A DNA stretch of 60,780 bases from a virus. Taxonomy: Duplodnaviria; Caudoviricetes. Of the stretch, positions 14,401 through 51,357 are shown piece by piece (position 1 is the first letter of the stretch; the number at the start of each line of letters is the position of its first letter). Under the pieces are notes generated by a model. The model was given only the letters and a program-made list of their open reading frames with translations, had not been told where the DNA came from and did no database searches. The position numbers were made by a program, and so were the translations under genes. The stretch is from the IMG/VR virus record IMGVR_UViG_3300010373_000010, positions 1 through 60,780 of that record. One strand, 5' to 3'.

Positions 14401-17400
14401 ATGTCCGACACGATCGAGCCCGAGAGCCACGAGTTCGAGCAGCCCGAGGAGGGTTTCTCGCGCACGTCTCGACCGCTGATCGACGAGGCACCGGGCGGTA
14501 AAGTCCGCACGAAGATCGCTCGCAATAGGCTCAAGGAGGAGTGGAAGGCGCTGGGCGACGCGCTGCTCAACAACCACTTCTTCGCTCACATGGATAAGTT
14601 CCGCGACACGGGTGAGCCGCTGGGCACGCACTTCCTACTCCAGCATTTCATTGAGCATGCGACGCAGTCTCCGACGGTGAAGGCCATCCTGTCAGCCGTC
14701 CGCGCCCGCGTCCCCGACGCGCCTGTGTACAACCGCAGCGCCCTGGTGAACCCGAAGATCGGGGATACCACCAGGGTGCCATCTGGGGCTGTTGGCATCG
14801 CGAGCTTCGCGCACAACGTACCAAGCGTGCAGATCAACTTCGACTCCAACCGCTGGAAGCCGGCGTTCCTGGCGCGGGCGTTGGTACACGAGGCCATCCA
14901 CACTGGCACCGTCAATGAGCTGGCAGCCAACCCCAACGGTGAGCTGGCGACTCGGATGAAAGCCCTCCACAACATCCTGCTCCGTAGGCTGGAGAAGCAG
15001 TATGGAGCCGAAGCCATCCGTCAGCATATCTCTTACTGGGACGGCGGCGGACCCAAGCCTGCGACCTACAACCGGGCGTTGTACGGCGCGCACAATCCGC
15101 TGGAGATGATGTCGGAGGTTCTGTCGAACCCGGACTTCGTCGATGAGATCAATGCAACAGAAAAGTTCGCGAGCCCAGACGAGAACTTCGATGGCACAAA
15201 GCAGACGCTGTTGACCCGGATCTTCAAAGCTATCGGGCATTTCTTCGGCCATAAGGAAGCACCGCTGCTACAGCACATTCTTGACACGACCTACGATGTC
15301 ATGGATGCGCAGAACGCCCATCGTCCGGATCTTGCTGCCATGCGGCACACTGACATTCACGAGAAGCTGCCGAGCAACACTCGGGCCGCTCTCGGGCTCA
15401 CGCCGATGGAGAACATCGCGCTCGACCATGTAGCGCGGATGCTCGATGAGGACCCCGAGCCGCTTCGCGGAAACGACCGCGAGATGGCGGAGCTGAGCGC
15501 CGGCAGCGGCATGCACACAACGGCCAAGGAGTTTGCCCACACCGTCAAGTCAGGTGTCATCGACGGCCTGCGCAAGTCCATCACCGCGCTCAAGACCGTC
15601 AACCAGATTTACCGGGACCACATTCGGGACTTCGGTCACGACACGTCGTCCAACCCGCTGCGCCGTCTCCAGGATGCTGATTCCAAGAAGGAGACCATCA
15701 TCCATCACTTGCGGGAGATCAGCGATCCTGTCGCTCGCAAATGGGCGCGGCTGTCTCGCGAAGACGATCTCGCTGTGTCGAAGCTCATGATCGACACGAC
15801 CATGTACAAGCTCGATCCGCGGCTGAAGATCGATGAGCAGTCGCTCGTTGCTCGATCGGCCAAGGGCGCCGAGGCGCGGCTTGCCGAGTTCAAGACTCGC
15901 TACGACAAGCTGTCGCCGGAGGCGCGGGAGGTCTACGATGGGGCGACCGACGCGAACCGCAAGCTCGTCCGGGCTCAGCGCCGAGCAGGAGTTGACACTG
16001 CTATCGATGCACTGGAGGCTGATCTTTCACCCGCCCAGCGCGGACTCCTCTACGGTGCCAAGAACCCCGCGGCTTACGATGCCATCATCGGGAAGGGGAA
16101 GCTCATCGATCTCGGCGATGAAGGCAAGAACGAAAAGCTCAAGTCGTCCCTCCGAGACTTCGCCGGCTTCACAGAGCTGGACGGCCCGTACCATCATCTC
16201 GGGCGCCAGGGTGATTTCGTTGTCGCTGCTACACCCGAGGGCACGCGAGAGTTCGATGATCGACCCGCCGCAGAGGAATTTGCCCAGCGAGTTTCCGGCC
16301 TATCGCCGCGTTCTCGCGCGAAGGTGGTCGAACGCGGTGGCAAGTTCGCTGTTGATTACCGCGCCGAGTATGTTTCCATGCATCGGACCCAGCGGGAAGC
16401 TGAGCGCGTCCGTGACCAGATGGAGGCGGCTGGGCTTGAGGTAGGCCACGTCACCCGCAAGACCATGGGTACAGCGTATGGTGCGCTGACCCACGGCATG
16501 CAGGAGTTGGTCACCGAGGCCACGCGCAAGATGACCAAGGGCGTGAAGTCGGACGAGGAGCAGGAAGACGTCAAGGCGCAGGTGAACTCTCTACGATCGG
16601 CGTTCCTACAGATCCAAGCAGCCCGCTCAGCGTTCGCCGGCTCTCGCCTCGCTCGTCGCAACATCGGTGGCGTCAAGCCGCTCGACATGCGGCAGAACTT
16701 CGCTGAGCACGCGCTCTCCGCGGCGTGGCATACGGCCCAGATGTCCACCGTGTTCGATCACGCAGATGCAATGGCGAAGCTGCGCTCGATGGCGCGCGAC
16801 CGGCTCGACGAGAACGCCAGTCAGGCGACCATGTACCGGCGCGGCGAAGCCGTGAAGGCGCTCGCCGACCACACGGTCGATGACGTCAACACCATGGGAC
16901 AGAAGGCTCCCATGAACGCCATGCTCGCGAAGCTCGGGTTCATGGGGTACCTCGCGTCCACGTCTCATGCCGCGATCTGGCTGACACAGAATTTCACGAC
17001 TGCGATCCCGACCGCCGGCCCACGCTGGGGATATGGGAAGTCGCTGGCGGCGTTCGGTCGAGCGATGGCTGCCGTGGCGAGTCCGGTGGTCCGCGCACAC
17101 ATGCAGGAAGTGCTGAGCAAAGGGGGTGACAGTGAATCCGTCCACCAAGCCCTGCTGGCGGCTATCGCCAAGCACCCCACCCTCGGCCACTGGGCTCAGG
17201 GCGATAACTCTCCACTTCGCCAGTTGTTCGATCGCGGCGTCATTTCACACGGCTACGCGGACGAACTCACGAATATGGCGAAGGGGCCGTCGGTGTTGGG
17301 CCGAGCAATTCACGGGTACGACCGAACTATCGATCGCATCTTTAGCTGGGCCAGGGTCCTACCTGCGATGGCGTCGAGTTTTAACCGGCTTAGCACAGCA

Positions 17401-18462
17401 CTGGCGGCCCTGGAGCTGACCGGAGGAGACATCCGCAAGACGTCGGACTTCGTGGATGAAACCCACGCTGACTATTCGCAGGCCAACAAGCCGCTGCTGT
17501 TCAAGAAGTTCGGCCACATCCCCGGTGGCAACTCGATCACGATGTTCAAGACCTACACGCAGGCGATGATCCACCTGCTATACGGCAACTTGAAGGCCAG
17601 CTTCGTGGGAGACAACAAGGCCGAAGCCGCCAAGACATTCGCGGGACTCGTCATCGGCAACGCGCTCTTTGCCGGCGCCGCGTCTGCAATTGGCCTGGAG
17701 CCGCTGCGCCTCGCGCTGTATGCCTACCACAAGATTGCGGACAAAGATGGCGACGTGTGGGACTTCCGAAATGCAGTCAACCGGTTCCTGGTAGAGCACT
17801 TCGGCAAGACGGTAGGCAACGCGCTCGCAACCGGCCCGATCCCTCGTGCGCTCAACATCGACGTCAGCAAGCGCATGGGGCTGTCGGATCTGTTCTTCCA
17901 CGATCCGCCGGATCTGCTCAGTGGCGGCCAGGATGCCTGGAAGAACTTCTTCTGGGATGAACTTGGTCCGATGCCACAGCTCCTCGCCAAGAACGTGTCA
18001 TCGTTCTCGGGCAAGTTCCAGCGCGGCGATCTCGGCGGCGCGTTCGGTTCGATCGTGCCGGTGAAGCAGTGGCAGGACGCGCGACAGGCGCTGGATCTAC
18101 TCCAGGCCGGTGATACCAATTCGTCCGGCGCATCGCTCACCCAGCCGTCGGGCGCCGACGCGGTCACGCGGTTCCTCGGGTTCACGCCGACGGATGTTGG
18201 CGATGAGCGTGAGAAGACGCGGGTGAAGATCGAGTACGCGGACGCCGCGAAAGCAGCCCGCACCGACATCCTCAAGCAGATCACGTCAGCCCGCACAGCC
18301 GGCGAACAGGCTGCGGCCTACGGTCGCATGGATCGTTGGAACCGGAACAACCCGACGATGGCGATTGGCGCTCGTGACATTGAACGTCAATACAAGTACC
18401 GGGCTTACGATCAGGCGGGCGTCGAGCGCAACGCCAAGGCCCAGGCAGCCACGAGCTACTAG
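11485..18462 (+). CDS. Large ejection/polyvalent virion protein (2325 aa) with a zincin HExxH domain and a PLxRFG-like C-terminal region
   Basis: LVHEAIHTGT..YGAHNPLEMMSE metallopeptidase-like motif; GPYHHLGRQGDFVV resembles the PLxRFG motif; last late gene, convergent with the primase. Confidence 0.75.
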   Translation: MPDLSVPLPAPLPGPGAAPDAPLGDISAAKADALSSLKQSMPGYTPLADGARQTQVTGGGGGSMEVMPNSAPDPTADQIKGAGAQIPGIPAAPPPPKQAVTDAAPEDNTHYGMSSFLHFIRDATVGPTAEARQQSEREIKDAVPRGALQLWKLFNSAAAGGIFLGEKAFGSKQHYEDAQFNYIKNHIQPAIDNWTPKRGMTGDQNAAAPVASAVGGALEFAPSMVMGGGAGTALSTLQAIAGGNTSAQDDIDADKNVTQSIADGTIDTVATMLMAKGFSPSKFMLRRVIRGAKVGALVQLGSNIAKVIVGHTFGGNKNAPTAQDFLKDIPESAILGGLFGVKRHAAEHSEGKAKPGSERVESTEGAGAPPPSPAAVAAASADTASSVNPPGEVKLPGEPAGVIPGPKSAVPDQPSPEPLKDIKAQFKDMNDKSTPRTGVLVTPETGKHLESLGDKTLAQAKAQGRTVDFPQGTLVLKTKGDVIKVKQRMKAGEDPQAIIGSVTGAGSGKSPDATAVVQGRDATGAVASETTVHPNDVPLAVAKMQDQGKTPVVTTPEEAVARRVAERSQEAAQPAPAEPVAKTEAMPEHESDETPAAPAPRMGLFKPEKGDEVAVHIEDGAPPGKVRVRPIDASTGEASDRTIDVPAERVRQSQPPAPEQATATLNREEAAKPVSEVPPEKLATAPGEQPKVTDTSGRDSRAHEHSVRRRKVVARAHVQDKAVAAAHHVAVHSVEAGLVQEQNQDDAYTKALRDALAFHMEQEQVQPGYAHAGKLSERQDNAVAFAKVLRTAAKAKQGKMDDRIVNRANKAAAATIKQLGRKSAEQTQAGQGTSHTRVDALNDEMHRSARELLGTATEADKEPAMEPKAAELNRRITREKTGVAGSARKPAKEVRVAKKTGMPPAEKLRTQKLVNDYIASDFDEHPKAHQALLQHLHELADKYDDFPRDQIDQYMRFLSEQRDEQQGEHTGRMSDTIEPESHEFEQPEEGFSRTSRPLIDEAPGGKVRTKIARNRLKEEWKALGDALLNNHFFAHMDKFRDTGEPLGTHFLLQHFIEHATQSPTVKAILSAVRARVPDAPVYNRSALVNPKIGDTTRVPSGAVGIASFAHNVPSVQINFDSNRWKPAFLARALVHEAIHTGTVNELAANPNGELATRMKALHNILLRRLEKQYGAEAIRQHISYWDGGGPKPATYNRALYGAHNPLEMMSEVLSNPDFVDEINATEKFASPDENFDGTKQTLLTRIFKAIGHFFGHKEAPLLQHILDTTYDVMDAQNAHRPDLAAMRHTDIHEKLPSNTRAALGLTPMENIALDHVARMLDEDPEPLRGNDREMAELSAGSGMHTTAKEFAHTVKSGVIDGLRKSITALKTVNQIYRDHIRDFGHDTSSNPLRRLQDADSKKETIIHHLREISDPVARKWARLSREDDLAVSKLMIDTTMYKLDPRLKIDEQSLVARSAKGAEARLAEFKTRYDKLSPEAREVYDGATDANRKLVRAQRRAGVDTAIDALEADLSPAQRGLLYGAKNPAAYDAIIGKGKLIDLGDEGKNEKLKSSLRDFAGFTELDGPYHHLGRQGDFVVAATPEGTREFDDRPAAEEFAQRVSGLSPRSRAKVVERGGKFAVDYRAEYVSMHRTQREAERVRDQMEAAGLEVGHVTRKTMGTAYGALTHGMQELVTEATRKMTKGVKSDEEQEDVKAQVNSLRSAFLQIQAARSAFAGSRLARRNIGGVKPLDMRQNFAEHALSAAWHTAQMSTVFDHADAMAKLRSMARDRLDENASQATMYRRGEAVKALADHTVDDVNTMGQKAPMNAMLAKLGFMGYLASTSHAAIWLTQNFTTAIPTAGPRWGYGKSLAAFGRAMAAVASPVVRAHMQEVLSKGGDSESVHQALLAAIAKHPTLGHWAQGDNSPLRQLFDRGVISHGYADELTNMAKGPSVLGRAIHGYDRTIDRIFSWARVLPAMASSFNRLSTALAALELTGGDIRKTSDFVDETHADYSQANKPLLFKKFGHIPGGNSITMFKTYTQAMIHLLYGNLKASFVGDNKAEAAKTFAGLVIGNALFAGAASAIGLEPLRLALYAYHKIADKDGDVWDFRNAVNRFLVEHFGKTVGNALATGPIPRALNIDVSKRMGLSDLFFHDPPDLLSGGQDAWKNFFWDELGPMPQLLAKNVSSFSGKFQRGDLGGAFGSIVPVKQWQDARQALDLLQAGDTNSSGASLTQPSGADAVTRFLGFTPTDVGDEREKTRVKIEYADAAKAARTDILKQITSARTAGEQAAAYGRMDRWNRNNPTMAIGARDIERQYKYRAYDQAGVERNAKAQAATSY

Positions 18463-20885
18463 ACCGTCTTCAGCTCGGTGCGAATCTCGTCATTGCTGGC
18501 GTTCGCCCACTGAGAGTGGTTCCTCCACACCCACGGTCGGAGCTGTGCCATCGACGAGCGAATCTGCTTCAGAGCTTGTGCATCTGGGATTGCCCGGATG
18601 ATGTACTCACGCACCTGCACGCCGCTGTAGGTCTTGCCAGTCTCGGACTGGAGCATCTGTCGCACGGTCTCTGTCAAGAAGACATCCTTGGCAAATGGGC
18701 CGCTCGCATTGTCTGCCCACTCCTTCAGGATCTGAACCTCGAATGCTTGCGAGCGCTGGATCATCCTGCGCTTGGCAGCGGTCAGCGGCGGGGCAGCCTG
18801 GGGGTCAAACCCTGAAAGATCCACCTGCGAGAAGTACCACCGAAGTTTCCCTGGCCCGCTGGGCGAAGTGATGAGCGCGTGAATGGCGCGAAAATACGCT
18901 GCTTTTTGTCCAAGCGTAGGAAATGATGGAGGGTTGAGGTAATAAACACCCCAACGTCGCTCATCGTCTGACGGGAGGGAGATGGCGTCTTCATAGTTAG
19001 ATGTCGCTGTTATGAACAACCTGTTAGGAATGTTGAAGGTCTTCATGCCTTTGGGGTGAACTTCCACCATCTTACCTGTGATGAGGTTCTTGAGGGAGTT
19101 AGCCGTATCATCGGAGTCCCACTTCCCATTGATATGTACCTCATCGAAATGGACGAAGTGGGTCCCATTGATATAGTCAGAAAATGTGGAACGGAGAACT
19201 TTGTTCGAGACGAGCTTGCTAACATGTACTCCGGCAAGGGCGCGCGGAATGTCATACATCACCGTTGTTTTTCCAGTCCCGAACTCTTTGCTGACCATGA
19301 CAGGCGCCGAAGCGATCTTAACATCAGGGTGCTGTACCAAGTGCCCATAACACCCCATGAGGTATTCTCCGAAAGGGCGATCCTCCTCGCGAGGGAACAG
19401 GTACTGCCACCAGAAGTGTTCGATGAGTTTAACTTCAGCGGGCGACATGGGAACGAGCTGTTCCGGCGCAAGATACTGGTTGACGTAGCTGAGGCCGTTC
19501 TCCATGTAGACGCTGGGAGCGCCAGGGTGAAACCCGAGGCTGTTGACAGCGTGAACGGTTCCATACCGGCGCATGATGGCAGTCGCATTGATGGGTATCC
19601 CATTGGCGTTGAGGGGCATGTAGCGAGTCAACATGTCGTCGATGACACGGCTCGCCATTGGCATCCTGTTGGTGATCGAGTAGAAGATCCCCTCCTGATC
19701 TCCGACCAACACGAACTCGTTGGCCAGCCAGTGGACGGCGTCGTTCAGCTCGAAGCGCGGCTTGCCGAGAGCCTTCGCTGCGTGGTCCGCGGCGAGCATC
19801 AGCTTGCTCGCAACGATGCCCTGCTGGATGGCTGGCGCCGCAGTGCTCGCTGCGTTCGGCGCGGCCGGGGAGATCAGGGTAGCGAGGGACGGCCCGGCAA
19901 CCGGCGTGACTGGATCAGCCGGCTGCATGGGAGCCCAGCCCGCCTCGGTCGCCTTCTTCACCAGGGTGGCGACGGTGATCCCGCCGCCGGGCTCGAAGCT
20001 GTCCCAGGTCTTGCGGCAGTCGGCGCGATCGACGTACCCGGGCTGCCCGCTCGACCAGTCGTGGAAGACCTCGAAGCTGGCTTCGGACTTCTTGCCCCAA
20101 TCCTGTATAGCATTGAGGATCGTGATCCACTCGTCCCGGCCGCCCATGGGTGGGAGCTGAATAAAGTCGAGCATGTCCCGGACGTCGTCTTCGGGCAGGG
20201 CGGCGAACTCGCGACGGCTGGCCAGATCGTCCTGGCCGACGAGCGCCGCGAGCTTGCCAGCGGCCGACGTGGGAACGGTCTCCACGCGCAGCGCCGAGGC
20301 CATGGCTTCGAGGCTGACGGTTTGGCCACTGTCTGACAGCACCCGGCACGGCAGCGGCTCTGATCCCTTCCTATTGAGCGTGCCAGGGCATCTGAGAATA
20401 CGCGCCGGGTCTGCGGTAGCCGTGGGATCGGCCGCGAAGTCCAGCTCCCTGCACTTCTCTTTTAAAGCCTTAGCAACAGGAAGCCATTCATCGAGAGAAG
20501 CATCCTGGTCGAGAACCCAGTAGACATGCGCTCCACGCCCCGAGTGTACGAAGATGCTTGGGGGAGGCAGACCCGTCGCCTTCACGAACGCTACGAAAGC
20601 GCGGAGCGCATTAGGAATCGTCCCAAAATCTTTGCTATCAAGGTCAAGGAACAAACATCGCTTCGCGACAGGGTCCTTCCGATTCTTACCGGCGTAGGAC
20701 CCCGTTGCGTAGAAGACGTTCACAGGAAGCTGTGACAACTTCTGAACTTGGGCTTCCAAATCCGCAACGGTCTTTATGCCGTTGAAATGCCGCTGCTCAG
20801 ATAATTTGCCGTCTGGACCGGTCACTCCCGACATCAAACAGTATGGCCCTGTTGATGGCAACACTCTTTCGTAGAAGCTACCCAT
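18459..20885 (-). CDS. Primase-helicase (AEP/RepB-like primase, PriCT-2, DUF5906/SF3-like helicase)
   Basis: FLDLD, SGRGAHVYW, RILRCPGTLNRK; RDEW..I..F..WS..Y..W.SF..ITVATL; GTGKT, FVHFDE, ITATSN, DDERRW. Confidence 0.9.
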   Translation of the reverse strand: MGSFYERVLPSTGPYCLMSGVTGPDGKLSEQRHFNGIKTVADLEAQVQKLSQLPVNVFYATGSYAGKNRKDPVAKRCLFLDLDSKDFGTIPNALRAFVAFVKATGLPPPSIFVHSGRGAHVYWVLDQDASLDEWLPVAKALKEKCRELDFAADPTATADPARILRCPGTLNRKGSEPLPCRVLSDSGQTVSLEAMASALRVETVPTSAAGKLAALVGQDDLASRREFAALPEDDVRDMLDFIQLPPMGGRDEWITILNAIQDWGKKSEASFEVFHDWSSGQPGYVDRADCRKTWDSFEPGGGITVATLVKKATEAGWAPMQPADPVTPVAGPSLATLISPAAPNAASTAAPAIQQGIVASKLMLAADHAAKALGKPRFELNDAVHWLANEFVLVGDQEGIFYSITNRMPMASRVIDDMLTRYMPLNANGIPINATAIMRRYGTVHAVNSLGFHPGAPSVYMENGLSYVNQYLAPEQLVPMSPAEVKLIEHFWWQYLFPREEDRPFGEYLMGCYGHLVQHPDVKIASAPVMVSKEFGTGKTTVMYDIPRALAGVHVSKLVSNKVLRSTFSDYINGTHFVHFDEVHINGKWDSDDTANSLKNLITGKMVEVHPKGMKTFNIPNRLFITATSNYEDAISLPSDDERRWGVYYLNPPSFPTLGQKAAYFRAIHALITSPSGPGKLRWYFSQVDLSGFDPQAAPPLTAAKRRMIQRSQAFEVQILKEWADNASGPFAKDVFLTETVRQMLQSETGKTYSGVQVREYIIRAIPDAQALKQIRSSMAQLRPWVWRNHSQWANASNDEIRTELKTV

Positions 20886-42312: not shown

Positions 42313-42347
42313 AAAAGGGGCTGGCTCACAACCAGCCCCGATTCTTT
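42313..42347. terminator. Bidirectional intrinsic terminator
   Basis: AAAA-GGGGCTGG-loop-CCAGCCCC-GATTCTTT between convergent genes. Confidence 0.75.
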
Positions 42348-42974: not shown

Positions 42975-43009
42975 AAAAAGACAGCCCGCTCGATGCGCGC
43001 CGCGGGCTG
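42975..43009 (-). terminator. Intrinsic terminator directly upstream of an RBS
   Basis: Minus strand CAGCCCGC-loop-GCGGGCTG-TCTTTTT followed at once by GGAGG. Confidence 0.7.
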
Positions 43010-43304
43010 GGGTCTGTAGTGAACGAACTCTACCACAGCAAAAACAACAAGGCTAGATCGCTGTCTCGTTGCAGTTGGCCACAGAGCGTTGGATGCAGCA
43101 GAACAGGGTGCAGCAGTAAGGCCGCGTCAGCCGGTCGGTCGCGCTCCAGTCAGGTAATATACCCTCTGGGCGTTGCCCTAGCACCTTTTCGCCTTGGGAT
43201 GGGCTCAGTGAACCCATTCCAAGACGCCAGCCCGTGCAGTGCTGTTTCGCTATTCTCACGGAGTAACCCGGGAAGTCAGCAGTCGCTGCGTGGGCTGGAC
43301 GGTC
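43010..43304 (-). ncRNA. Candidate structured intergenic RNA
   Basis: Stems at 43190-43226 and 43227-43298 and further small hairpins; no convincing ORF. Confidence 0.4.
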
Positions 43305-43766
43305 TTAGGCTATGCCTCTTCGCATCACGGCGGCCGGCAGATGCGCCGAGACCGCGCTGCGGTCACTGGGCTTGTTGCGCACGACCCGCGTGATCTTGCG
43401 CACAGCCTTCAGCTTCCGCTTGGTCTCGTGGACGCGATTGGCGAACCGGATCAGATTGCGCCAGCGACGTTTCATCATGTAATCGATGTCGTACTGGTTG
43501 TTGGTTTCGCGTCGGATGCGATGCACGACTCGCGTATCGCTCTGGTCCCAGCGCATATACGACTGGCTCTCTCGATTGATGCTCTTGCCCAGCAGCACCG
43601 CTGCGCCGCCGGTCGGACAGAACCCGTTGCGGGCGCAGTGATCGGCGAACGCCTGCGTCAGCTCGAAGCTCTTGCCACCCAGCTCGTTCTGCAATTGGAC
43701 AGCGTAGCTGGCGTAGCATCCCCTGCGTACCTTCATGCAGTACGCGTATGTGACTCGTCTTGCCAT
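43305..43766 (-). CDS. Basic hypothetical early protein
   Basis: AAAGCGAGGTAAC RBS; Arg/Lys-rich. Confidence 0.7.
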   Translation of the reverse strand: MARRVTYAYCMKVRRGCYASYAVQLQNELGGKSFELTQAFADHCARNGFCPTGGAAVLLGKSINRESQSYMRWDQSDTRVVHRIRRETNNQYDIDYMMKRRWRNLIRFANRVHETKRKLKAVRKITRVVRNKPSDRSAVSAHLPAAVMRRGIA

Positions 43767-43767
43767 G

Positions 43768-44007
43768 TTACCTCGCTTTTGGAAGGTTGGATTCCAGGTA
43801 CTCGATCAGATACTTGGCATACGCCGTGACGAAATCATACTTCACGCCGTTGATCTCGAACACGAACTGGATCTCAGAATTGAGCACGGCTTGGCGATAC
43901 CGCTCTTTGAATTTCTCCAGCAGCGGTCTCGTCCAGCCGATGGTTGTGTCAGGCATGTGCAGATACTCCAGCAGCTTACCTCGGTGACCATGAAGCGCGT
44001 AGGCCAT
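43768..44007 (-). CDS. Hypothetical early protein
   Basis: F.F..G..F...YAKYLIEYLE motif typical of small phage early proteins. Confidence 0.7.
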   Translation of the reverse strand: MAYALHGHRGKLLEYLHMPDTTIGWTRPLLEKFKERYRQAVLNSEIQFVFEINGVKYDFVTAYAKYLIEYLESNLPKAR

Positions 44008-44170
44008 GGTCACCTGGGTAGACTACTTCATAATATCACCCGTGTTTGTATCAGCGCACCCTCCGGTGACAGCATGCTCGACCTCGCAGGAGAGGTTCGC
44101 GGACGTCACTAGGTTCGATCGGTCGGCTATTCAACCGGCGAAGCGGGCTGAGGGGGTGGTGGGAAGCAGG

Positions 44171-44290
44171 TTAGAACCCTTCTTCGTCGTCAGAGTCGCC
44201 CATCCCGAAGTGGATGAACTTGCCCGTGAGCAGGCACAGCGCGGCGTCGATTACGAACACCGCGATGGTAATCAGCGTGACCTCGATCAT
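44171..44290 (-). CDS. Small single-TM protein (MIEVTLITIAVFVID..., 39 aa)
   Basis: ATGA overlap, GGAG RBS, hydrophobic N-half and acidic tail. Confidence 0.55.
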   Translation of the reverse strand: MIEVTLITIAVFVIDAALCLLTGKFIHFGMGDSDDEEGF

Positions 44291-44529
44291 GAAAGCAGTC
44301 TCCGTCTTTCCATCCGCGGGAGCATGCTCCGGCACCAGCGGATCTCGGTGAGTATCACGGCCCTCCGGACCGCGCGAGCGCTCTGGCTATCCCAGCGCTC
44401 TGGGTACGCATCGATGTAGGCTAGCTCGTTCAGCAGGTCTTCGATCGTCCGGTGAAGGGTACCCAGGCCGGGCGTCGCAGACTCAGCATTCGAGCAGCTT
44501 GGGTCTTCCACGGGCCTTGCGTGCTGCAT
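44287..44529 (-). CDS. Hypothetical protein
   Basis: Operon-consistent ORF. Confidence 0.5.
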   Translation of the reverse strand: MQHARPVEDPSCSNAESATPGLGTLHRTIEDLLNELAYIDAYPERWDSQSARAVRRAVILTEIRWCRSMLPRMERRRLLS

Positions 44530-44692
44530 CGATCATCTCCGTGAGTTTAGACTGGCGCTCTCGGGCAGCATTACGCATGTCCTCAAGAGCGTTGATATAT
44601 CTATCCCAGGTCTGCTCAAAGTCAAGCTCGGCTGCATCCCCTCCATCAGTCGGGTTATGGCTCTGAGCAGAGCCTTGTTTAAGAAGGCTCAT
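44483..44692 (-). CDS. Hypothetical protein
   Basis: AAAGCGAGGTAAC RBS (same 13-mer as before 43766); C-terminal RGRPK. Confidence 0.6.
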   Translation of the reverse strand: MSLLKQGSAQSHNPTDGGDAAELDFEQTWDRYINALEDMRNAARERQSKLTEMIDAARKARGRPKLLEC

Positions 44693-44857
44693 ACTCGTTA
44701 CCTCGCTTTGTAACCAGGATCATAGAACACAGTCACAAAGCCCGCCCAGCCGGCGAGGCTAGGTAAGCCGTATGCTATCCGGGAACTTGATGACAACATC
44801 AGCGCAGTGCCTTCTGTCTCGTCGGTCCTCGGATCTACGCGGGCTGAGCGGGCTTTG

Positions 44858-45178
44858 TCACGATGATCTACGTTCTCGGAATCGTCTCTGGCGCTCGCGG
44901 TTCAGCTCTCGCGTGTGCTCGCTGAGCTTATACTTGCGCTGCTGTACGGGCGTTGCGGTTGCGTCTACGTAACGCCCATGGTTTATCAGCCAGCGGCGTA
45001 ATCTACCAAATTTCCTTTGTAATCCAAGCACTTCCATTAGCTGCTGAAGCGTGCCTACTGGCGAGTCTGGATCATCCGGATCGAGCGTAAACCTATCCTC
45101 AAGGTCTATTTTTCCTGTAACGACTAGGCGCCGGATGAATAAGTAACGCTCATAGCACTTGGTCCAATGGTCTTTCAT
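44858..45178 (-). CDS. Hypothetical basic protein next to the putative origin
   Basis: Low-GC ORF with a basic C-terminus (NRERQRRFRERR). Confidence 0.55.
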   Translation of the reverse strand: MKDHWTKCYERYLFIRRLVVTGKIDLEDRFTLDPDDPDSPVGTLQQLMEVLGLQRKFGRLRRWLINHGRYVDATATPVQQRKYKLSEHTRELNRERQRRFRERRSS

Positions 45179-45185
45179 ATGAACC

Positions 45186-45398
45186 TGTAACTGTGTACCG
45201 TGTAACTGTGCCTCGGAATACTCGCAGATCAGAGTGAGTAACGCAATGACGCGTAACGCGGGCTGAGGGGCCGAGCCCGCATGGTGCTATACAGTATACT
45301 ACTGTATAACATTATATATAATTATTCTATTTTAATAGTTACATAGTTACAATAATAGCTAAGTGATTGAATCTCTTAGCCGTCACTCTGTAATTGTG
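45186..45398. other. Putative replication origin (iteron-like repeats around an AT-rich core)
   Basis: TGTAACTGTG x2, GTAACGC x2, inverted TAGTTACA x2, TGTAATTGTG, a 9-bp inverted repeat, and the most AT-rich stretch I saw. Confidence 0.6.
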
Positions 45399-45468
45399 CC
45401 CCTGGCAACACGCACAAGGACACAATGACAGAGCCCTGAAGCCATCCTTGGCTTCAAGACCTTGCGGG

Positions 45469-46023
45469 CTAGGCGGCCTGAGCGACCTCGGCCTTGGGCG
45501 CCTTGGGGTCGTAGCCATTGGCCCGCGCGAAGGCCACCAATGCCGCCGAGAACTTCCGAGCTTCCGGCGTGACCTTGGGAATGTCGGTCCCGTCGAAATT
45601 CTCGGAATTGGTGGACTTGGCGACCAGCGACTTGAGCAGGCCCTCCACGGTCGTGCTCTGAGGGTCGCGCTCGTCGGTCAGATCGGCGAACGTGATCTCC
45701 ATCGCGCCGGCGACGTCGAAGTCTGATTCGAGCCGCTGCTTCGAGAGCTTGGCAGCCCAGACCTTCGTGCTCTTGTCCTGAGTCAGAATCAGCTTGCTGT
45801 TGCTGAACTTCTTGAACCAGAACGCGAGCGCCTTGACGCGCTGGCCATTCGGCAACGCATTCATCAGCGCCACCACGCCAGTCGTGTCTCCGTGCGCGCG
45901 AACGTGATCCAGGCCGGAGCACGCACAGACGTGTATGCTGTCCTGGACAGTCGCGGCCACGGTCTTCAGCTCAGCAACGGCCTTCATCAGGTCGCTCTGA
46001 GTCAGGAGCTTGATAGTAGCCAT
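45469..46023 (-). CDS. Conserved early phage protein (resembles phiKMV-like early gene products)
   Basis: IH..A...L.H...HGD.T....L.NALP.G.R..AL..WF pattern; GAGGA RBS; strong codon bias. Confidence 0.75.
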   Translation of the reverse strand: MATIKLLTQSDLMKAVAELKTVAATVQDSIHVCACSGLDHVRAHGDTTGVVALMNALPNGQRVKALAFWFKKFSNSKLILTQDKSTKVWAAKLSKQRLESDFDVAGAMEITFADLTDERDPQSTTVEGLLKSLVAKSTNSENFDGTDIPKVTPEARKFSAALVAFARANGYDPKAPKAEVAQAA

Positions 46024-46100
46024 ATGACTTAATCCTCGGTAGGTGTTAGGTGCTAAATGCACCGCAAAGCCCGCGTGGTAACACGGGCGATGCGCTGAAC

Positions 46101-46283
46101 TCAGCGTGATCTGTTAAGTACTTTGCTGCTATTGCTGCGAGCCGAACGCTCCCAGCGCTGATACGTAGACTTGCCGCGTTGCGCTTCGTGAATCCGTTGC
46201 GCGAGACCGTGATTCCTGTCATCGACAGCGTATTGCCTGCCGTTGATTAAGATAACCTTGCGGCCATGTAACTCTGTCAGCAT
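46101..46283 (-). CDS. Small hypothetical early protein
   Basis: GAGGT RBS, ATG 46283. Confidence 0.55.
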   Translation of the reverse strand: MLTELHGRKVILINGRQYAVDDRNHGLAQRIHEAQRGKSTYQRWERSARSNSSKVLNRSR

Positions 46284-46289
46284 GTTGAT

Positions 46290-46722
46290 TACCTCAGTGG
46301 ACGGGCTAAGCGAGCCGCGCGTCGCAGCCCGCTTAGTCCGCCCACCGAGAATTTATGCCCTCTCGCGCGCGATGATTCGCGCCTCGGCCGTAGCGCGATA
46401 GACTGTCATTGCGACAGCGACGCTACGCGGGCTTGGTTCGGGAGAGAATCACTCCCAACGCCCTGTCGCGGCCCGTCATACACAGGGCATTACCCCTGGA
46501 GCGGTTTCGGTACTCCCGTTGCCTGAGATAGACGTGCTCTGGCGCTAGGGCCAAACCCTGTGAACAAGGCTTGGACGTCACGGCTCAGCGGCTACCCTGT
46601 AAGCGGCAAACCCGGTCAGTGCGTCGCAGGTTTCATGTGTCCGGTGATTCGGCGGGCTAGGCGACTAGGTCGCTTTGCCGTCCCTGCACCCCTTGGGATT
46701 CTGTGTTATGTTCAATCCCAGA
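46290..46722 (-). ncRNA. Candidate large structured ncRNA/5' leader (about 430 nt)
   Basis: No convincing ORF; about 10 nested stems; a terminal 27-bp stem has 4 G-U pairs only on the minus strand. Confidence 0.55.
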
Positions 46723-46828
46723 TTATGTCGCCTACCGGCATGTAGTCTGGACCAGGGGGTGGGGGGTGGCCATCGCGCGTCACCGCAGCCCGCCATACTT
46801 TCTCACCAAAAACCAACATACATACGTT

Positions 46829-47110
46829 ATGACTACATCATGGCTCGACTGCATTCCTGACGACATCGCTGCTGCTTACAAGTTAGTTGGAATACACGTG
46901 TTAGGATTCAGCATTTCTGAGCAGAAGCTCGTATTGGCATGGGGCCAAGGCTGTCGCGCAGACCCCGAGTTCACCGAGATGAAAGACGGCTACGATGGCA
47001 AAGCCCGCATATGGCGCATCCCGGTGCCCTCTCCGCGCGAGGAGTTCGAGAAGCCGCTCGACGAAGTCGCCGAGATCCACAGGCGTATTGCGGCCTCGCA
47101 GGCTCGGTGA
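46829..47110 (+). CDS. Hypothetical protein, first rightward gene
   Basis: ORF between the divergence point and the tRNA-like gene. Confidence 0.5.
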   Translation: MTTSWLDCIPDDIAAAYKLVGIHVLGFSISEQKLVLAWGQGCRADPEFTEMKDGYDGKARIWRIPVPSPREEFEKPLDEVAEIHRRIAASQAR

Positions 47111-47124
47111 TATAAACACCGTCG

Positions 47125-47200
47125 AGACGGGTAGCTCAGTGGGAGAGCGTTGGCCATGCAGGCCGAAGGTCGCCGGTTCGAGTCCAGGCTCCGTCCGCCA
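47125..47200 (+). tRNA. Atypical tRNA-like gene, nominal anticodon TGC (Ala), encoded CCA
   Basis: TAGCTCAGTGGGAGAGC D-arm, TTGGC/GCCGA anticodon stem, GGTTCGAGTCC T-arm, 3' CCA; non-canonical A33, A1-C72 mismatch and bulged T-stem. Confidence 0.75.
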
Positions 47201-47224
47201 TCCTAACCAACACGAGTCTCACCA

Positions 47225-47380
47225 ATGAGCAACTTCAGTAAGCTGGAAAACAAGCTCGAAAAGAAGGGCATGAGCAAGAAGGAAGCTGGCGGTATCGCCT
47301 ACAACGCCGGCAAGGCGAAGTACGGCAAAGCCGGCATGGCCCGCAAGGCGGCGGCCGGTCGCGCGCGAAAGCGCGGCTGA
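47225..47380 (+). CDS. Small basic protein (MSNFSKLENKL...GKAKYGKAGMARKAAAGR, 51 aa)
   Basis: Clean ORF below the track cutoff; F.KL..KL..A..G..KYG...M...AAAGR pattern of small phage proteins. Confidence 0.7.
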   Translation: MSNFSKLENKLEKKGMSKKEAGGIAYNAGKAKYGKAGMARKAAAGRARKRG

Positions 47381-47389
47381 GTCGCCGAA

Positions 47390-47435
47390 TCTCGTATCCC
47401 GCGTGGGTCACTCCCGTGGGATACGAGAATTTCTT
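47390..47435 (+). terminator. Strong hairpin/terminator
   Basis: TCTCGTATCCCGCG / CGTGGGATACGAGA followed by ATTTCTT. Confidence 0.6.
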
Positions 47436-47468
47436 GACGGCCAAGCATACGCATGTTTTACTCTCGCC

Positions 47469-48215
47469 ATGACGTATGCATTCCAGCAGACGCAGCTAGA
47501 AAAAACTGCGCACGATTCACGGGTCTCGCCGCCCCCACCGCCGATGACCGCCCAGTCTGTACAGCAGCTCTGCGCCTCACCCGATGTTCCTGCACACATC
47601 AAGGCCCAAGCTGTACACGACTTCATGGCGAAGTCCCTGACGGACAAGGGCCTCGATCCCGGCACGTTCATGATCCCCAAAGAACGGCTCGACGAGCTGA
47701 CCCAGCGGATGCAGGCTGAGCGGGCGATGCGGGCGAGGCAGCTCGAAGATAATCTCCGGATGAAGATCGCGGAGTTCCACGAGCATGTAGGGCGTCCTCT
47801 GATGGCGCCCCCTCCGTCAGAGTCGGGCGCTGCCAATATGTCGTTCCCCCAGCAGTGGGGAGTAGGTGTTATTGGAGGGATCAACCGCACGATGGGCTTG
47901 GAGACGCCGCCTACCGCGGAGGAACTTCAGAAGACCGCACTCTCAAAGATGAACCCGATCGCTCGCGACAAGTACGAGCCGATCTTCAAACTCCTGGAGA
48001 TCCAGATCCGGTTCGTCGCCGGTCACTGGACCCTGTTCAAAGACACGCGTACCCAGAGCTGGCAGGCGCCCCTCGGAGATCCGGGGTGCTCGCTGATGAC
48101 GTGGGACGCGATGGTGTCAGAATTACTCGATGAGGTCGCTCGTGGCACAGTTTCAGGTGCAACCGGTCCTACGATCACCGGGCAGCAAGTTTGCGGCAGC
48201 GCCGGGCATACCTGA
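47469..48215 (+). CDS. Hypothetical protein
   Basis: ATG 47469 downstream of TTGACG (47434), with GC3 bias. Confidence 0.65.
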   Translation: MTYAFQQTQLEKTAHDSRVSPPPPPMTAQSVQQLCASPDVPAHIKAQAVHDFMAKSLTDKGLDPGTFMIPKERLDELTQRMQAERAMRARQLEDNLRMKIAEFHEHVGRPLMAPPPSESGAANMSFPQQWGVGVIGGINRTMGLETPPTAEELQKTALSKMNPIARDKYEPIFKLLEIQIRFVAGHWTLFKDTRTQSWQAPLGDPGCSLMTWDAMVSELLDEVARGTVSGATGPTITGQQVCGSAGHT

Positions 48216-48699
48216 GTTTGTCAGGACCGTCGCTCGCTTGATGAACATGGACTTCGTGTGGGTCCGGACGCGGGGTATGTACATTGCCACCGTCCACGAC
48301 ACGCGCGGAGCCCAGTCGCTCGACCACCACTTCGAGGCTGACCCGAAGATCCTGTCAGCCGATGATATATGGCTGGAGTGGCTGAAGCAGATTGCGGACT
48401 TCCTGAAAGAGCACGGCCAAGATGTCTCGAAGATCCAAACAAAAATCGCGGACTACAACGCCGTCTACTACACCGGCGAGAGAATCAGAGATGACAACGA
48501 CATTGACACCGAGCAAGCTGGCGCAGTTGGCAACACTGACGACCGAAGCAGACACGGCGGTACCGGATCAGACTCCAGCGCCGATCGCGGCGAACTTTCC
48601 CAATCCGACGGCACCCCGCCCCCAATTGCCCCCAGTTGGCCAGGGGCCGCGGACAGCGACGACGCCGGCACCGCAGCGGCCGATGCTGACGCAGGCTGA
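48130..48699 (+). CDS. Hypothetical protein
   Basis: ORF with GC3 bias up to about 48490, then overlapping the next gene. Confidence 0.55.
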   Translation: MRSLVAQFQVQPVLRSPGSKFAAAPGIPEFVRTVARLMNMDFVWVRTRGMYIATVHDTRGAQSLDHHFEADPKILSADDIWLEWLKQIADFLKEHGQDVSKIQTKIADYNAVYYTGERIRDDNDIDTEQAGAVGNTDDRSRHGGTGSDSSADRGELSQSDGTPPPIAPSWPGAADSDDAGTAAADADAG

Positions 48700-49009
48700 C
48701 CTGCTTGCTGCGAAAGAACGGCGAGCGGGCAACCCGGTCATCCGGATGACTGCGGACGATCCGGAGCTGCCGGACGACATTACGGCCATGCTCGTGATGA
48801 CTGGCCTCCACGCGCGCTGGTGTCAGAACTTCTGGCGGGTGTTCCTGCCGGACTCGGCGAACATCACCAACAGCGTTGGCGGTGGCAAGCTGCGCCGCTG
48901 GCAGACCGGCGTCCGCGCAGAGGCGTCGCCCGCGGAGTGGCTGGCGGAGATCAATCGCTTCTGGAAAGACGTTCACCCTGGCGAGCCGCTGCCCTTCGGC
49001 GAAGGCTGA
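48491..49009 (+). CDS. Hypothetical protein with Pro/Thr-rich N-terminus
   Basis: Codon bias and operon order. Confidence 0.65.
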   Translation: MTTTLTPSKLAQLATLTTEADTAVPDQTPAPIAANFPNPTAPRPQLPPVGQGPRTATTPAPQRPMLTQADLLAAKERRAGNPVIRMTADDPELPDDITAMLVMTGLHARWCQNFWRVFLPDSANITNSVGGGKLRRWQTGVRAEASPAEWLAEINRFWKDVHPGEPLPFGEG

Positions 49010-49010
49010 T

Positions 49011-49211
49011 ATGGTTCGGGCATACGAAGGCAACAGGGTTCGGGTCAACTTCTACTTCGACGAAGACGTCTTCATCGGATTGAAGCGGGTCGCGGCTCTG
49101 AAGGGCATGACGTACTCGGAGGCGCTGCGTCAGGCGGCCCGCGAGTACGTCGCCCGCCACACGTCACAGGCCCAGGCGGATCACACCAAACTCAAGGACC
49201 TCATCAAATGA
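49011..49211 (+). CDS. Ribbon-helix-helix (CopG/Arc-like) DNA-binding protein
   Basis: RVNFYFDEDVF..LKRVA..KGMTYSEALRQAAREYV. Confidence 0.8.
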   Translation: MVRAYEGNRVRVNFYFDEDVFIGLKRVAALKGMTYSEALRQAAREYVARHTSQAQADHTKLKDLIK

Positions 49212-49483
49212 AGCTCGAAGTCTACAATGACGAGATTGCCAACCCTCCGCTCAAGCGGCATATCGGCGTTTGGTCCGATCGTCCGCGGTTCCTTGGCATG
49301 TTCGAGAGCACGCCTATCCCTCCCGGACAGGAGCACAAAGCCCCAAGGGCCGGCGTCCTGGATCACTTTGTCACTTGCCCGGGATGCGGTAACCATCCAG
49401 TGCTACGGGCGATCTGCTTATACGTGAAGGCCGCCGGCCGCGTGTACAGCGTCTCCTGGCCGTCCTGGCTCCCAGTCCCGTGA
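49208..49483 (+). CDS. Hypothetical protein (CxxC)
   Basis: ATGA overlap. Confidence 0.55.
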   Translation: MKLEVYNDEIANPPLKRHIGVWSDRPRFLGMFESTPIPPGQEHKAPRAGVLDHFVTCPGCGNHPVLRAICLYVKAAGRVYSVSWPSWLPVP

Positions 49484-49800
49484 AGATGAGGCAGATGGGT
49501 ATGCGACTCATGACCGGCCGGAATCACCCGAACTTCGACCTCGACGGCGGAATGCCGCAGGGAGTCAAGACCGTGATCCGTGCGGCCAAAGACCCCATCT
49601 CCGACGTGCCACAGGACTGGTCGATCCTTCAGCTCTTGCAGCGGACTCTCTGCCGTGCGAAGCTGGATCGCGATTCCCAGCAGTGGGAGATCACCAGCGT
49701 CATCGGAACCGTCGCGTATCTGAGCTACGGGGCGGTGTACCAGGACTGGCAGGACGTGTGTGACCGATTGTTCGACGAGGCGATGAAATCCGATGGCTAA
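49480..49800 (+). CDS. Hypothetical protein
   Basis: GTGA overlap and codon bias. Confidence 0.55.
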   Translation: MKMRQMGMRLMTGRNHPNFDLDGGMPQGVKTVIRAAKDPISDVPQDWSILQLLQRTLCRAKLDRDSQQWEITSVIGTVAYLSYGAVYQDWQDVCDRLFDEAMKSDG

Positions 49801-50059
49801 TGTACTGCGGCTCGTCACCCGCGAGGAAAAAGACAACCAGTCTGTGTCCAAGTGCGTGGATGCCATCACGACGCTACACCAAGAGGGCAACCTCAAGCAG
49901 ATCGCGTCGGTGTACTGGACGAAGGACGGAAGGGTGAAACTTTGGGTCTCCGACAACATGACGCTGGCGGATCTTGCTTATGCCGTGAAGTCGCTCGACA
50001 TTGAACTCAACACGATGATGGGTCCGGGCGACCCGGTAGAGCCGAAAAATGGAGCTTGA
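49793..50059 (+). CDS. Hypothetical protein
   Basis: Operon-consistent ORF. Confidence 0.6.
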   Translation: MANVLRLVTREEKDNQSVSKCVDAITTLHQEGNLKQIASVYWTKDGRVKLWVSDNMTLADLAYAVKSLDIELNTMMGPGDPVEPKNGA

Positions 50060-50567
50060 TCCCGAGCTGTTTCCTCCAATGCAGGTCGTCCCGGCCGGCG
50101 GGATGAACGCAATAGTTCCCGCGGGAACTGAGCCGCCGAGTTCCATCACGGACTATGACTCGCGGCTCATCGCCGACCTCGTGGCCAATATCCGGCACCA
50201 GACAGACGTGCTGAAGCAGTACGGCCTCACCCCGGAGCAGCTTGCCGCGAAGCTCCTGAATCCGGCGTTCGCAGCGCACTACCGCGACACACAGCGGCTC
50301 TGGAACTCCGACATGAATGCCCAGGAGCGCATCCGCACGAAGGCGGCGTTCCTCCTGGAAGACTCGCTGCCCGAGCTGTCACGGATCGCGAAGAACCCGC
50401 AGGTGCCCGTCGCCGCGAAGCTGGGCGCGATCGAACAACTCACGAAGATAAGCACCGTGGCGCACGTGGCAAAGGGCGCCGGCGAGCCCAGTGAACAGCA
50501 CAAGATCATCATCAACATCGGGACGGACAAACCGCCCACGATCATCGCTCAGGAAGTATCCAAATGA
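50049..50567 (+). CDS. Putative terminase small subunit
   Basis: Helical, HTH-like N-part (DVLKQYGLTPEQL), C-terminal IIINIG beta strand; upstream of terL. Confidence 0.55.
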   Translation: MELDPELFPPMQVVPAGGMNAIVPAGTEPPSSITDYDSRLIADLVANIRHQTDVLKQYGLTPEQLAAKLLNPAFAAHYRDTQRLWNSDMNAQERIRTKAAFLLEDSLPELSRIAKNPQVPVAAKLGAIEQLTKISTVAHVAKGAGEPSEQHKIIINIGTDKPPTIIAQEVSK

Positions 50568-50938
50568 CAACGACATCCGAAGATTTGCAGGGCGCCGTCA
50601 AAGCAGGCGAGTATCTGGACGAGCAGCCCGTACCGCCGATGCCCATTCTGGAGAGAGGCAAGTTCTACGATTCCATAGCACCAAATGGCGAGAAGGTTAT
50701 CGTCATGTTGGAAGGCACATGGATCGACTTCGGTACCAACGTGCAGACGTTGCGACAGGCATTGTCGAACGCCGCGAAGAAGCTCAAAGAGGCCGAGATC
50801 GGCGAGAAGATCCTGCTCGCCCGGCTAGCTGATGTGCAGAACCGTCTGGACAACCTCCGGGCGATCCGCCGTGACGAGAAACGCCCCGAAGTCGAGGCGG
50901 CACTCGGAATGTCCCCCAACCAAGCAACACAAGGCTGA
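50564..50938 (+). CDS. Hypothetical coiled-coil protein
   Basis: ATGA overlap. Confidence 0.6.
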   Translation: MTTTSEDLQGAVKAGEYLDEQPVPPMPILERGKFYDSIAPNGEKVIVMLEGTWIDFGTNVQTLRQALSNAAKKLKEAEIGEKILLARLADVQNRLDNLRAIRRDEKRPEVEAALGMSPNQATQG

Positions 50939-50943
50939 TTACT

Positions 50944-51357
50944 ATGTCCATCAAGGCAACACTCAACACCGTGATTTCCAAGGTCGCGGCCAATCTCGTG
51001 AACGTCGAGAACGCGCTCAAGCAGGCCGAGGCGACCGTCGTCCAGGCGGACGAGGAAGTCGTCAACGCTGCCAAGGTGCTGCTCGCCAAGTTCGAGCACC
51101 CGCAGGCGGCCATGCAGATCCTCCAGAATGTCGCTCAGCTCAGTGCGCTGGCTGACACGAAGAAGGAGATGCACGCGATGATCGCCGCCCTCGAAGTTCA
51201 CCTGACCAACGAGGATGCGGTCAACGAGTCGCAGAAGGTTCTGGACCAGAACGCGACGGTGACCAGCTCCCCTCTTTCTGAGTCCGGTGCGGAGGGTGGA
51301 GCTGATGCAGTGGCTGACGCCGGACAGACTTCGGAGGCTGCCACCCCCTCTGCGTAA
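50944..51357 (+). CDS. Hypothetical helical protein
   Basis: Strong codon bias. Confidence 0.65.
   Translation: MSIKATLNTVISKVAANLVNVENALKQAEATVVQADEEVVNAAKVLLAKFEHPQAAMQILQNVAQLSALADTKKEMHAMIAALEVHLTNEDAVNESQKVLDQNATVTSSPLSESGAEGGADAVADAGQTSEAATPSA

Follow-up and report, generated by a model that had tools for sequence, protein, structure and literature searches.

A putative structured cis-acting leader RNA of the early operon in a clade of soil podophages

In IMG/VR record IMGVR_UViG_3300010373_000010, a complete virus genome of 60,780 bp with terminal repeats that was analysed over its whole length (hereafter, the window), the minus-strand genes run from position 46283 down to 18459, in the order of a 60-amino-acid (aa) open reading frame (ORF), designated p60, a phrog_1448 protein, many small ORFs, a helicase, a family-A DNA polymerase and a primase. 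The plus-strand structural genes begin after 47225. About 430 nucleotides (nt) of the divergent gap between the two gene sets lie directly ahead of p60 and raise the question of what a stretch of this length does at the head of an early operon if it is not translated. A preliminary description, made from the letters alone, had proposed a multibranched noncoding RNA of ~430 nt at the very start of the early transcript, and the stretch does lie between the only promoter-like zone and the gene that opens the minus-strand (early or replication) operon. We read the stretch as a structured cis-acting 5′ leader of the early minus-strand operon and as a previously uncatalogued RNA family common to a clade of soil podophages; to this reading, together with the mechanism proposed below, we assign a probability of roughly 0.55. 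The conserved multibranched minus-strand structure was recovered, but as far as the alignments reveal the conserved unit is a core of ~170 nt plus a terminal hairpin and not the full 430 nt, the rest being replaceable spacer.

Folding and conservation of the leader

The leader contains no convincing ORF, as had been supposed. Its three sense frames hold 6, 7 and 8 stop codons, and across four homologous leaders every sense frame carries 3–8 stops. The small ORFs of the window leader had no ORF match in the leaders of relatives (E ≤ 0.01). The ORF matches found among the relatives' leaders lay in overlapping frames and on both strands, as expected from nucleotide conservation. Because the gaps between homologous leaders are 1, 2, 5 and 6 nt long, no reading frame is kept.

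The GenBank phage collection held no close DNA relatives of the window, and a single-protein locus search in IMG/VR gave no match. The neighbouring phrog_1448 protein had 92 relatives in the protein collection, and alignment of 32 of these led to six IMG/VR loci and 12 Joint Genome Institute (JGI) metagenome loci; identity of this protein in the relatives is ~45–65%. The leader was recognised by nhmmer in four of the 18 loci, over its full length in L013, L009 and L011 and over the final 125 nt only in L008. The resulting alignment consists of islands of identity between unalignable stretches, with insertions and deletions of 1–6 nt and of 50–110 nt. An independent relative, the sequencing-run contig X4, spans 46459–46624 with 16 differences and carries other letters, of different lengths, in place of 46268–46335, 46365–46459 and 46624–46745. 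Three DNA-pattern scans of IMG/VR were also made: in the first, none of 18 loci fitted the profile; in the second, three of 19 did, all of them contigs already known; the third returned at least 116 stretches, and among 115 new loci four encode the neighbouring protein, three of which (L143, L150 and L152) had not been seen before. A scan of genome contigs returned solely an identical copy of the window phage.

RNAalifold predicted 72 pairs in the four full leaders, 20 of them with compensatory changes. The consensus of the core, in which helix P1 closes a junction of P2, P3 and P4 (Table 1), was drawn from positions 46440–46640 of the four-leader alignment. In it 97.0% of 165 cells were paired, compared with 84.5 ± 2.1% in shuffles, and 15 of the 42 pairs had changed on both sides. 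None of 500 shuffles matched the core in any of five measures, and when the partners were slid by 1–3 columns only 29.7–42.0% of the cells could pair. The cells included 17 G–U and no A–C, and the canonical fraction fell from 97.0% when the alignment was read as sense to 86.7% when it was read as antisense. The core is assigned to the minus strand because of this G–U to A–C asymmetry and not because of its folding energy.

The individual arms behave in the same manner. Four of the five P2a pairs are compensatory. P2b (CTGAG/CTCAG) was missed by RNAalifold, but is paired in all four close P2 arms, with a different sequence each time, in the minimum free energy (MFE) folds of the window, L009 and L011 and in the centroid fold of L013; P2b and P2c rest on these per-sequence folds and not on the pair count. 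The apical hairpin of P2 shows in X4 a double change from C–G to A–U, together with a loop changed from UUCA to CUUG. Both sides of the P3 stem have changed among nine sequences. The conserved loops of the core are the GAGUA pentaloop of P3 (which differs in L010, L011 and L014), the UAAY loop of P4 and a CUACAGG internal loop, and such invariant loops on covarying stems look like a docking surface.

About half of the stems listed in the preliminary description lack comparative support. CTGAG/CTCAG is P2b and was upheld, and GACGT/ACGTC agrees in part with the comparison. The bases of CGGCAAA/TTTGCCG, AGGG/CCCT, GGAGT/GCTCC and GCCCTGT/ACAGGGC are paired otherwise in the consensus; TGGGATT/AATCCCA, GCGAC/GTCGC, CCGG/CCGG and GGGAG/CTCCC are specific to the window, having no homologous stretch in the relatives; and CGTAGCG/CGCTACG is common only to the near-identical L008.

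The terminal 27-bp stem over the ribosome-binding site of the first gene was reproduced by RNAfold, with the GAGG in its 3′ arm. It consists of 22 Watson–Crick and five G–U pairs (the terminal U–G being counted), one A·C mismatch and a 3-nt loop, and its energy is −49.5 kcal/mol on the minus strand versus −37.5 kcal/mol on the plus strand. The ATG of the first gene is at 46283. In all five close sequences, the main stem measures 24–30 bp, its base UUCUC pairs with a GAG-rich ribosome-binding site, and the block ATAA(A/G)T(T/A)CTCGGTGG is near-invariant. Compensatory pairs occur, for example, at alignment columns 368:516, 375:509 and 377:507. Structured insertions of 50–110 nt are present at the apex in L013 and L009, and a long hairpin also adjoins the ribosome-binding site in L003, L010 and L015. 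The minus strand of 46290–46730 contains no terminator-like site; the hairpin is followed by GGUAAUCAAC AUG, with no U run. That this burial of the ribosome-binding site is conserved suggests, before anything else, a leader that regulates in cis.

Folding energies were compared with shuffles on both strands, as had been recommended. The minus strand of 46284–46730 gave an MFE of −196.4 kcal/mol against −170.2 ± 6.6 in shuffles (z −3.98; none of 100 shuffles equal), and the plus strand a z of −1.03, with 13 of 100 shuffles as good. Leaders of the relatives also fold below their shuffles. Outside the core and the hairpin the leader is replaceable: in X4, for instance, 120 nt of the variable 5′ segment are skipped and 141 other letters stand instead. 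As a whole, the comparisons made at the level of sequence show a conserved, structured minus-strand RNA of modular design, in which a core, disposable spacers and a hairpin can be distinguished, the helices are preserved by compensatory change, and the ribosome-binding site is buried.

No known RNA family was recognised, in keeping with the preliminary description. Rfam 15, which covers GOLLD, ROOL, HEARO, OLE, ribozymes and riboswitches, was applied with the gathering threshold of each family as the criterion. In the window, a transfer RNA (tRNA) alone reached threshold. Over 46200–47250 (E ≤ 10), four non-tRNA rows scored 10.6–16.3 bits against gathering thresholds of 45–88, and in the loci of nine relatives (31,022 bases) none of six rows fell inside a leader. 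Literature searches, with supplements outside their scope, found no description of the leader RNA and no paper for 'RHph_TM3_14A', one of the Rhizobium phages considered below.

The core can be followed into more distant loci. A covariance model of it, R1, scored 153 bits at the window core and 9.8 bits at the second-best match in the window, indicating a single copy in the 60,780-base genome. A module of P3 and P4 is shared by nine sequences (window, L013, L009, L011, L002, L003, L004, L010 and L014). Its parts are a 3-bp stem with a GAGUA-type pentaloop, an AAA, AUA or UAA linker, and P4, a two-tier hairpin in which the loop is UAAY and the 3′ internal loop is rich in UAA. RNAalifold predicted P3 and P4 from the five distant relatives alone, with eight of 12 pairs compensatory. 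When the nine sequences were aligned by hand over P3, P4 and the helix that closes P2, 126 of 126 cells were paired, compared with a mean of 69.9 and a maximum of 85 in 2000 shuffles, a significance that is overstated since the stems were chosen by eye. Elongated P2 arms closed by P2a were found in seven of the nine. Placement of P1 in the distant relatives by duplex folding was ambiguous, and MAFFT gave no structure-consistent alignment of the distant cores. The Rhizobium phage carries the motif AATCCCTACGGTT and a structured leader of ~340 nt (z −3.24).

Several observations weigh against this interpretation. The folding asymmetry between strands seen in the window is not general, as the leader of L009 gave z −2.45 as sense and −2.61 as antisense and that of L011 −3.49 and −2.81; with antisense values as low as these, thermodynamics alone does not decide the strand. 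Only four full close leaders (window, L013, L009 and L011) entered the alignment, which is shallow at 4–9 sequences overall, and the counts for the core are inflated because its consensus was taken from the same alignment. In distant loci, R1 gave only weak matches; of the three best outside the window itself, two (11.8 bits in L004 and 10.2 bits in L002) are full-length, on the correct strand and directly behind the promoter zone, and the third, at 11.4 bits, is spurious. R1 did not detect the leaders of the Rhizobium phage, L143, L150 and L152. The first gene has no strong hairpin ahead of it in L004, L014 and L152, and the core is not linked with the hairpin by any alternative pairing that is conserved. 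Finally, a simple sigma-70 scan called no promoter at the CATAAT near the putative 5′ end, and the leader is known here from DNA, none of the four listed sequencing runs being an RNA run.

Possible functions of the leader

The leader probably controls the switching-on of the early genes. Host RNA polymerase would start just upstream of it, near CATAAT, and the long hairpin would hold the first gene untranslated until opened. The likeliest opener would be a cut by RNase III in the duplex of more than 20 bp; such a cut would expose the ribosome-binding site and at the same time sever the leader from the messenger RNA. The core would act as a folded docking platform for a putative factor that tunes early expression, candidates being the transcribing polymerase, the p60 product or a host protein.

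Classical substrates of RNase III are duplexes longer than 20 bp situated where leader and message meet, as in T7 R0.3 and the lambda N leader. The hairpin, lying between transcript segments, provides at least the 20 bp (about two helical turns) by which we defined such a site, and by analogy with those two systems it is probably cut by RNase III. In the lambda pL leader, nutL is followed by an RNase III-sensitive hairpin and then by the N gene. The window presents the same order of early promoter, conserved RNA element, long hairpin by the ribosome-binding site of a small basic first gene, post-gene hairpin and the rest of the early operon. The T7 early leader and R0.3 offer a second parallel, with a leader of some 400 nt that ends in a long duplex just ahead of the first early gene, and several tandem −10-like elements, as in the relatives. 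To our knowledge, the T7 leader holds no conserved junction domain, whereas here the core is the best-conserved part.

With odds clearly against it, the core might instead belong to a hitherto unseen class of phage RNA with a direct effect on the host machinery, either as a much larger, non-lambdoid analogue of putRNA carrying polymerase through an early terminator or as an RNA that RNase III sets free and that disables a host factor within minutes of infection; the same cut would unmask the ribosome-binding site of the first gene.

The first of these possibilities can be stated more specifically as processive antitermination, which we consider unlikely: the nascent core would bind its host polymerase, make it resist terminators as HK022 putRNA does, and let it pass the terminator-like hairpin at 42317–42339 to reach the replication genes. 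The scan of the 20 larger window proteins revealed no phage RNA polymerase, so that host polymerase must read the ~28-kb operon, and on the strand of the operon one strong terminator-like site follows 4.4 kb farther downstream. Invariant loops on a folded and conserved core would suit an RNA that docks a protein. Terminator-like sites are, however, no commoner in the operon than in shuffles (18 versus 14.5 ± 3.6; 6 versus 6.5), the later genes could carry promoters of their own, and the core has no sequence or model similarity to known RNAs. The account of HK022 (PMC9378689) describes a put RNA of ~70 nt, with two stem-loops in a V shape and two copies per genome (putL and putR), that binds the β′ zinc-binding domain. 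The leader resembles it in being a folded RNA, proposed to act in cis, right after the early promoter zone, as putL is, in a phage reliant on host polymerase (PMC9378689). It differs from put, on a comparison of architecture only, in that the core measures ~170 nt, has four helices and occurs once (PMC9378689).

The resemblance to lambda is likewise limited in its details. No boxA-like block is conserved in the leader and no boxB is clearly recognisable. The nut consensus consists of boxA and a boxB hairpin with a GNRA-like pentaloop on a stem of ~5 bp. The GAGUA loop of P3 fits G-N-R-N-A, but its stem has just 3 bp and lies inside a four-way junction, and the loop varies in L010, L011 and L014. 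Nor does p60 show similarity to N, a protein with an arginine-rich motif; it is modelled with beta strands as well as helices.

A stable RNA acting in trans is, in our estimation, quite unlikely. RNase III would release a leader of ~380 nt, whose core would then work by itself and might, for instance, be a sponge or decoy directed at a host protein or a defence system. The presence of a long, perfect duplex precisely where the leader ends on its 3′ side, the conservation of the core independently of its flanks and a gene order that places it among the first RNAs made in infection all suit this idea. Against it, the core does not recognisably imitate tRNA, 6S, CRISPR repeats or any other known RNA, and the conserved link with the ribosome-binding site speaks for a role in cis at the very least.

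Phage riboswitches exist, and the leader shares with translational riboswitches and ribosomal-protein leaders a conserved folded domain upstream of a helix that buries the Shine–Dalgarno sequence. It is nevertheless very doubtful that the core senses a host metabolite or ion as an aptamer, with the terminal hairpin as the expression platform for the first gene. The layout of conserved junction domain, variable linker and occluding helix, and the covariation expected of a conserved aptamer (the 15 of 42 core pairs given above), speak for such a sensor. No mutually exclusive pairing of the core with the anti-Shine–Dalgarno strand is conserved, however, and the two alternative pairings offered in the preliminary description (ATGCCCT/AGGGCAT and GACGGGC/GCCCGTC) are absent from L013, L009 and L011. 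The linker between core and hairpin is replaceable and very variable in length, as would hardly be expected of a mutually exclusive fold; the hairpin, with its 27 bp, is too stable for toggling by a ligand; the downstream gene hints at no ligand; and, differently from known translational riboswitches and ribosomal-protein leaders, the leader matches no Rfam model.

Least credible is the absence of a specific function, with the stems merely shielding a long leader from Rho or RNases, or with conservation reflecting DNA-level signals (promoters, operators or a replication origin): the adjoining promoter-zone motifs are strongly conserved as DNA, two relatives fold as well in antisense, and over-representation of the heptamer GCGGGCT makes hairpin-forming repeats a general habit of the phage, but compensatory changes preserve specific helices with invariant loops, the excess of G–U over A–C cells argues for selection on one RNA strand, the direct-repeat arrays typical of an origin are missing, and generic protection would not keep a four-way junction and its loops across relatives with neighbouring proteins as divergent as those compared here.

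Promoter zone, first gene and genome context

The coordinates of the leader, its parts and the adjoining features are collected in Table 1.

Table 1. Features of the early control region of the window; all lie on the minus strand.
Feature	Position	Strand	Remarks
Conserved upstream DNA element	46745..46830	-	ACGTATGTAT, then TATG(G)CGGGC, two C-tracts (C6), then GGTCCA
CATAAT, −10-like hexamer	46722..46727	-	putative promoter; GGTCCA 20 nt upstream at 46748-46753
Whole untranslated early-operon leader	46284..46715	-	putative 5′ end; no conserved ORF; fold z −3.98; homologous leaders
Variable 5′ segment, window-specific hairpins	46625..46715	-	hard to align in A2/A3; replaced in X4
Four-helix core, P1 closing junction of P2, P3, P4	46458..46624	-	RNAalifold, 42 pairs
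P1 5′ strand, partner 46458-46471	46612..46624	-	11 pairs, 100% of cells paired, 3 compensatory, 8 invariant
P2 arm	46519..46609	-	P2a 46609-46605/46523-46519; P2b 46588-46584/46527-46523; apical hairpin 46574-46565/46560-46551
P3: 3-bp stem, GAGUA pentaloop, then AAA linker	46508..46518	-	found in 9 of 9 sequences examined
P4	46473..46504	-	outer stem 46504-46500/46478-46473; inner hairpin 46498-46494/46489-46482; UAAU-containing loop; 3′ internal loop
Variable spacer hairpins	46353..46457	-	nearly gone in L009; in X4 93 nt skipped, 55 other letters
Single-stranded CAUAAAU, directly 5′ of hairpin	46351..46357	-	conserved block
27-bp terminal hairpin; base UUCUC pairs with ribosome-binding site	46292..46350	-	RNAfold; 5 of 5 close sequences
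GAGG Shine–Dalgarno of first gene, in hairpin 3′ arm	46293..46296	-	
First gene p60, 60-aa basic protein	46101..46283	-	homologues in same position
GC-rich hairpin directly after p60 stop codon	46064..46093	-	stable counterpart in most of 10 sequences examined
Strong intrinsic-terminator-like hairpin	42317..42339	-	10 bp (7 G-C), then TTTTCT; ~4.4 kb downstream, same operon

The CATAAT hexamer noted in the preliminary description is present just upstream of the leader, and the DNA beyond it is conserved in distant loci as well. The nhmmer profile of the upstream element matched in L002, L003, L004, L010 and L014, and the spacing from its first to its last block is 63–64 nt in the window, L002, L003, L004 and L014; X4 covers 46745–46803 of it. 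The relatives carry GACATAAT in 1–3 copies. In the distant loci, a sigma-70-like reading fits the sequence, with −35 TTnnCA, a spacing of 17–18 nt and −10 TATGGT. In the window the TATGGT appears to have been lost, and CATAAT with the GGTCCA upstream of it is the candidate promoter. A G/C-tract analogue of the element occurs in Rhizobium phage RHph_TM3_14A, and it is possible that the element comprises divergent promoters or operators.

Three other explanations of this zone were considered and rejected. A T7-like phage promoter of the form CATAAT-N8-AATCCCTATGG is not repeated in the genome, which also has no phage RNA polymerase among the proteins scanned. A leader peptide starting at the ATG of the upstream element (M-R-A-W..PPPPWSR) shifts frame between the window and L013 and has no ATG in L003. 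A replication origin was discarded as there are no iterons. A near-repeat of 17–20 nt links the apex of the terminal hairpin (46316–46332) with the upstream element (46774–46793; families D2 and D4) and could be chance. On the plus strand, a 135-aa ORF (46703–47110) starts within the conserved noncoding zone; tblastn matches to its first ~45 codons look like nucleotide conservation, and the ATG at 46829 (93 aa) seems more likely to be its start.

Homologues of p60 stand in the same position in at least ten further loci (L008, L013, L009, L011, L003, L004, L010, L014, L015 and L152) and share the pattern IHGR-x-C-x3-NGR-x-YAV ... ERVQRSARNN; a word-based homologue search found two proteins. The protein had no Pfam or PHROG match and no PDB fold match at E ≤ 0.001. 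Its predicted model (predicted local distance difference test score, pLDDT, 69) has three strands and two helices, of which the C-terminal one is arginine-rich. L005 and L150 have a different first ORF that shares just a C-terminal ARVI-like motif with p60. The hairpin after p60 carries a short U run in the window and L010 only, among the 10 sequences examined, and a second hairpin often precedes the ribosome-binding site of the next gene. The terminator-like hairpin farther downstream is bidirectional and closes off the group of small early ORFs.

The gene that follows p60 is a member of a family situated 1.3–2.4 kb from the left end in 18 of the 25 records listed, the remaining rows being elsewhere or permuted; those 18 we take to be T7-like phages. 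This position near the left genome end fits an early-operon context. The nearest cultured phages are the Rhizobium phages RHph_TM3_14A, TM27A/B and TM29 (portal protein 44% identical; genomes of ~60.9 kb). In the early region of RHph_TM3_14A (19355–20125; L057 9356–10125) there is an AT-rich stretch of 770 bp without annotated genes and with many ATAAT/TTATAAT-like repeats.

Other features of the window were noted in passing. A tRNA-Ala(UGC) gene (47126–47196, plus strand) lies between the divergent control zone and the structural genes, and in L004 a tRNA (687–759) is found upstream of the leader on the strand opposite to the early operon. The final 600 residues of a 2325-aa ORF (11485–18462, plus strand) gave its sole match, to phrog_37402, whose function is unknown. 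The window contains 46 copies of the heptamer GCGGGCT (AGCCCGC when read on the opposite strand), compared with 15.1 ± 3.8 expected, and none of 100 shuffles reached 46; 16 copies lie within 4 kb of the early region (cluster 42983–47008), and many are part of hairpins between genes, among them the post-p60 hairpin and the apex of the leader hairpin. An identical 8-kb copy of 43023–51022 (L173) is situated on a 60,798-bp contig in a record whose title gives an Acidobacteriaceae metagenome-assembled genome. L173 is the same phage binned with a bacterium, and gives a weak hint of an Acidobacteriaceae host.

Structured early leaders, namely lambda nut, HK022 put and the T7 RNase III sites, have taught much about antitermination and RNA processing, and all of them come from coliphages. 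The leader described here is conserved, larger and differently built, and comes from uncultured soil phages; its family has few accessible members, and cultured Rhizobium phages, which may have distant counterparts of it, would make laboratory work feasible. Binding of polymerase or of a host factor by the core, if it occurs, would amount to a new way in which a phage uses RNA to gain control of early gene expression. If the leader merely gates translation, it would still be a new RNA family, with its helices and loops defined and ready for probing.

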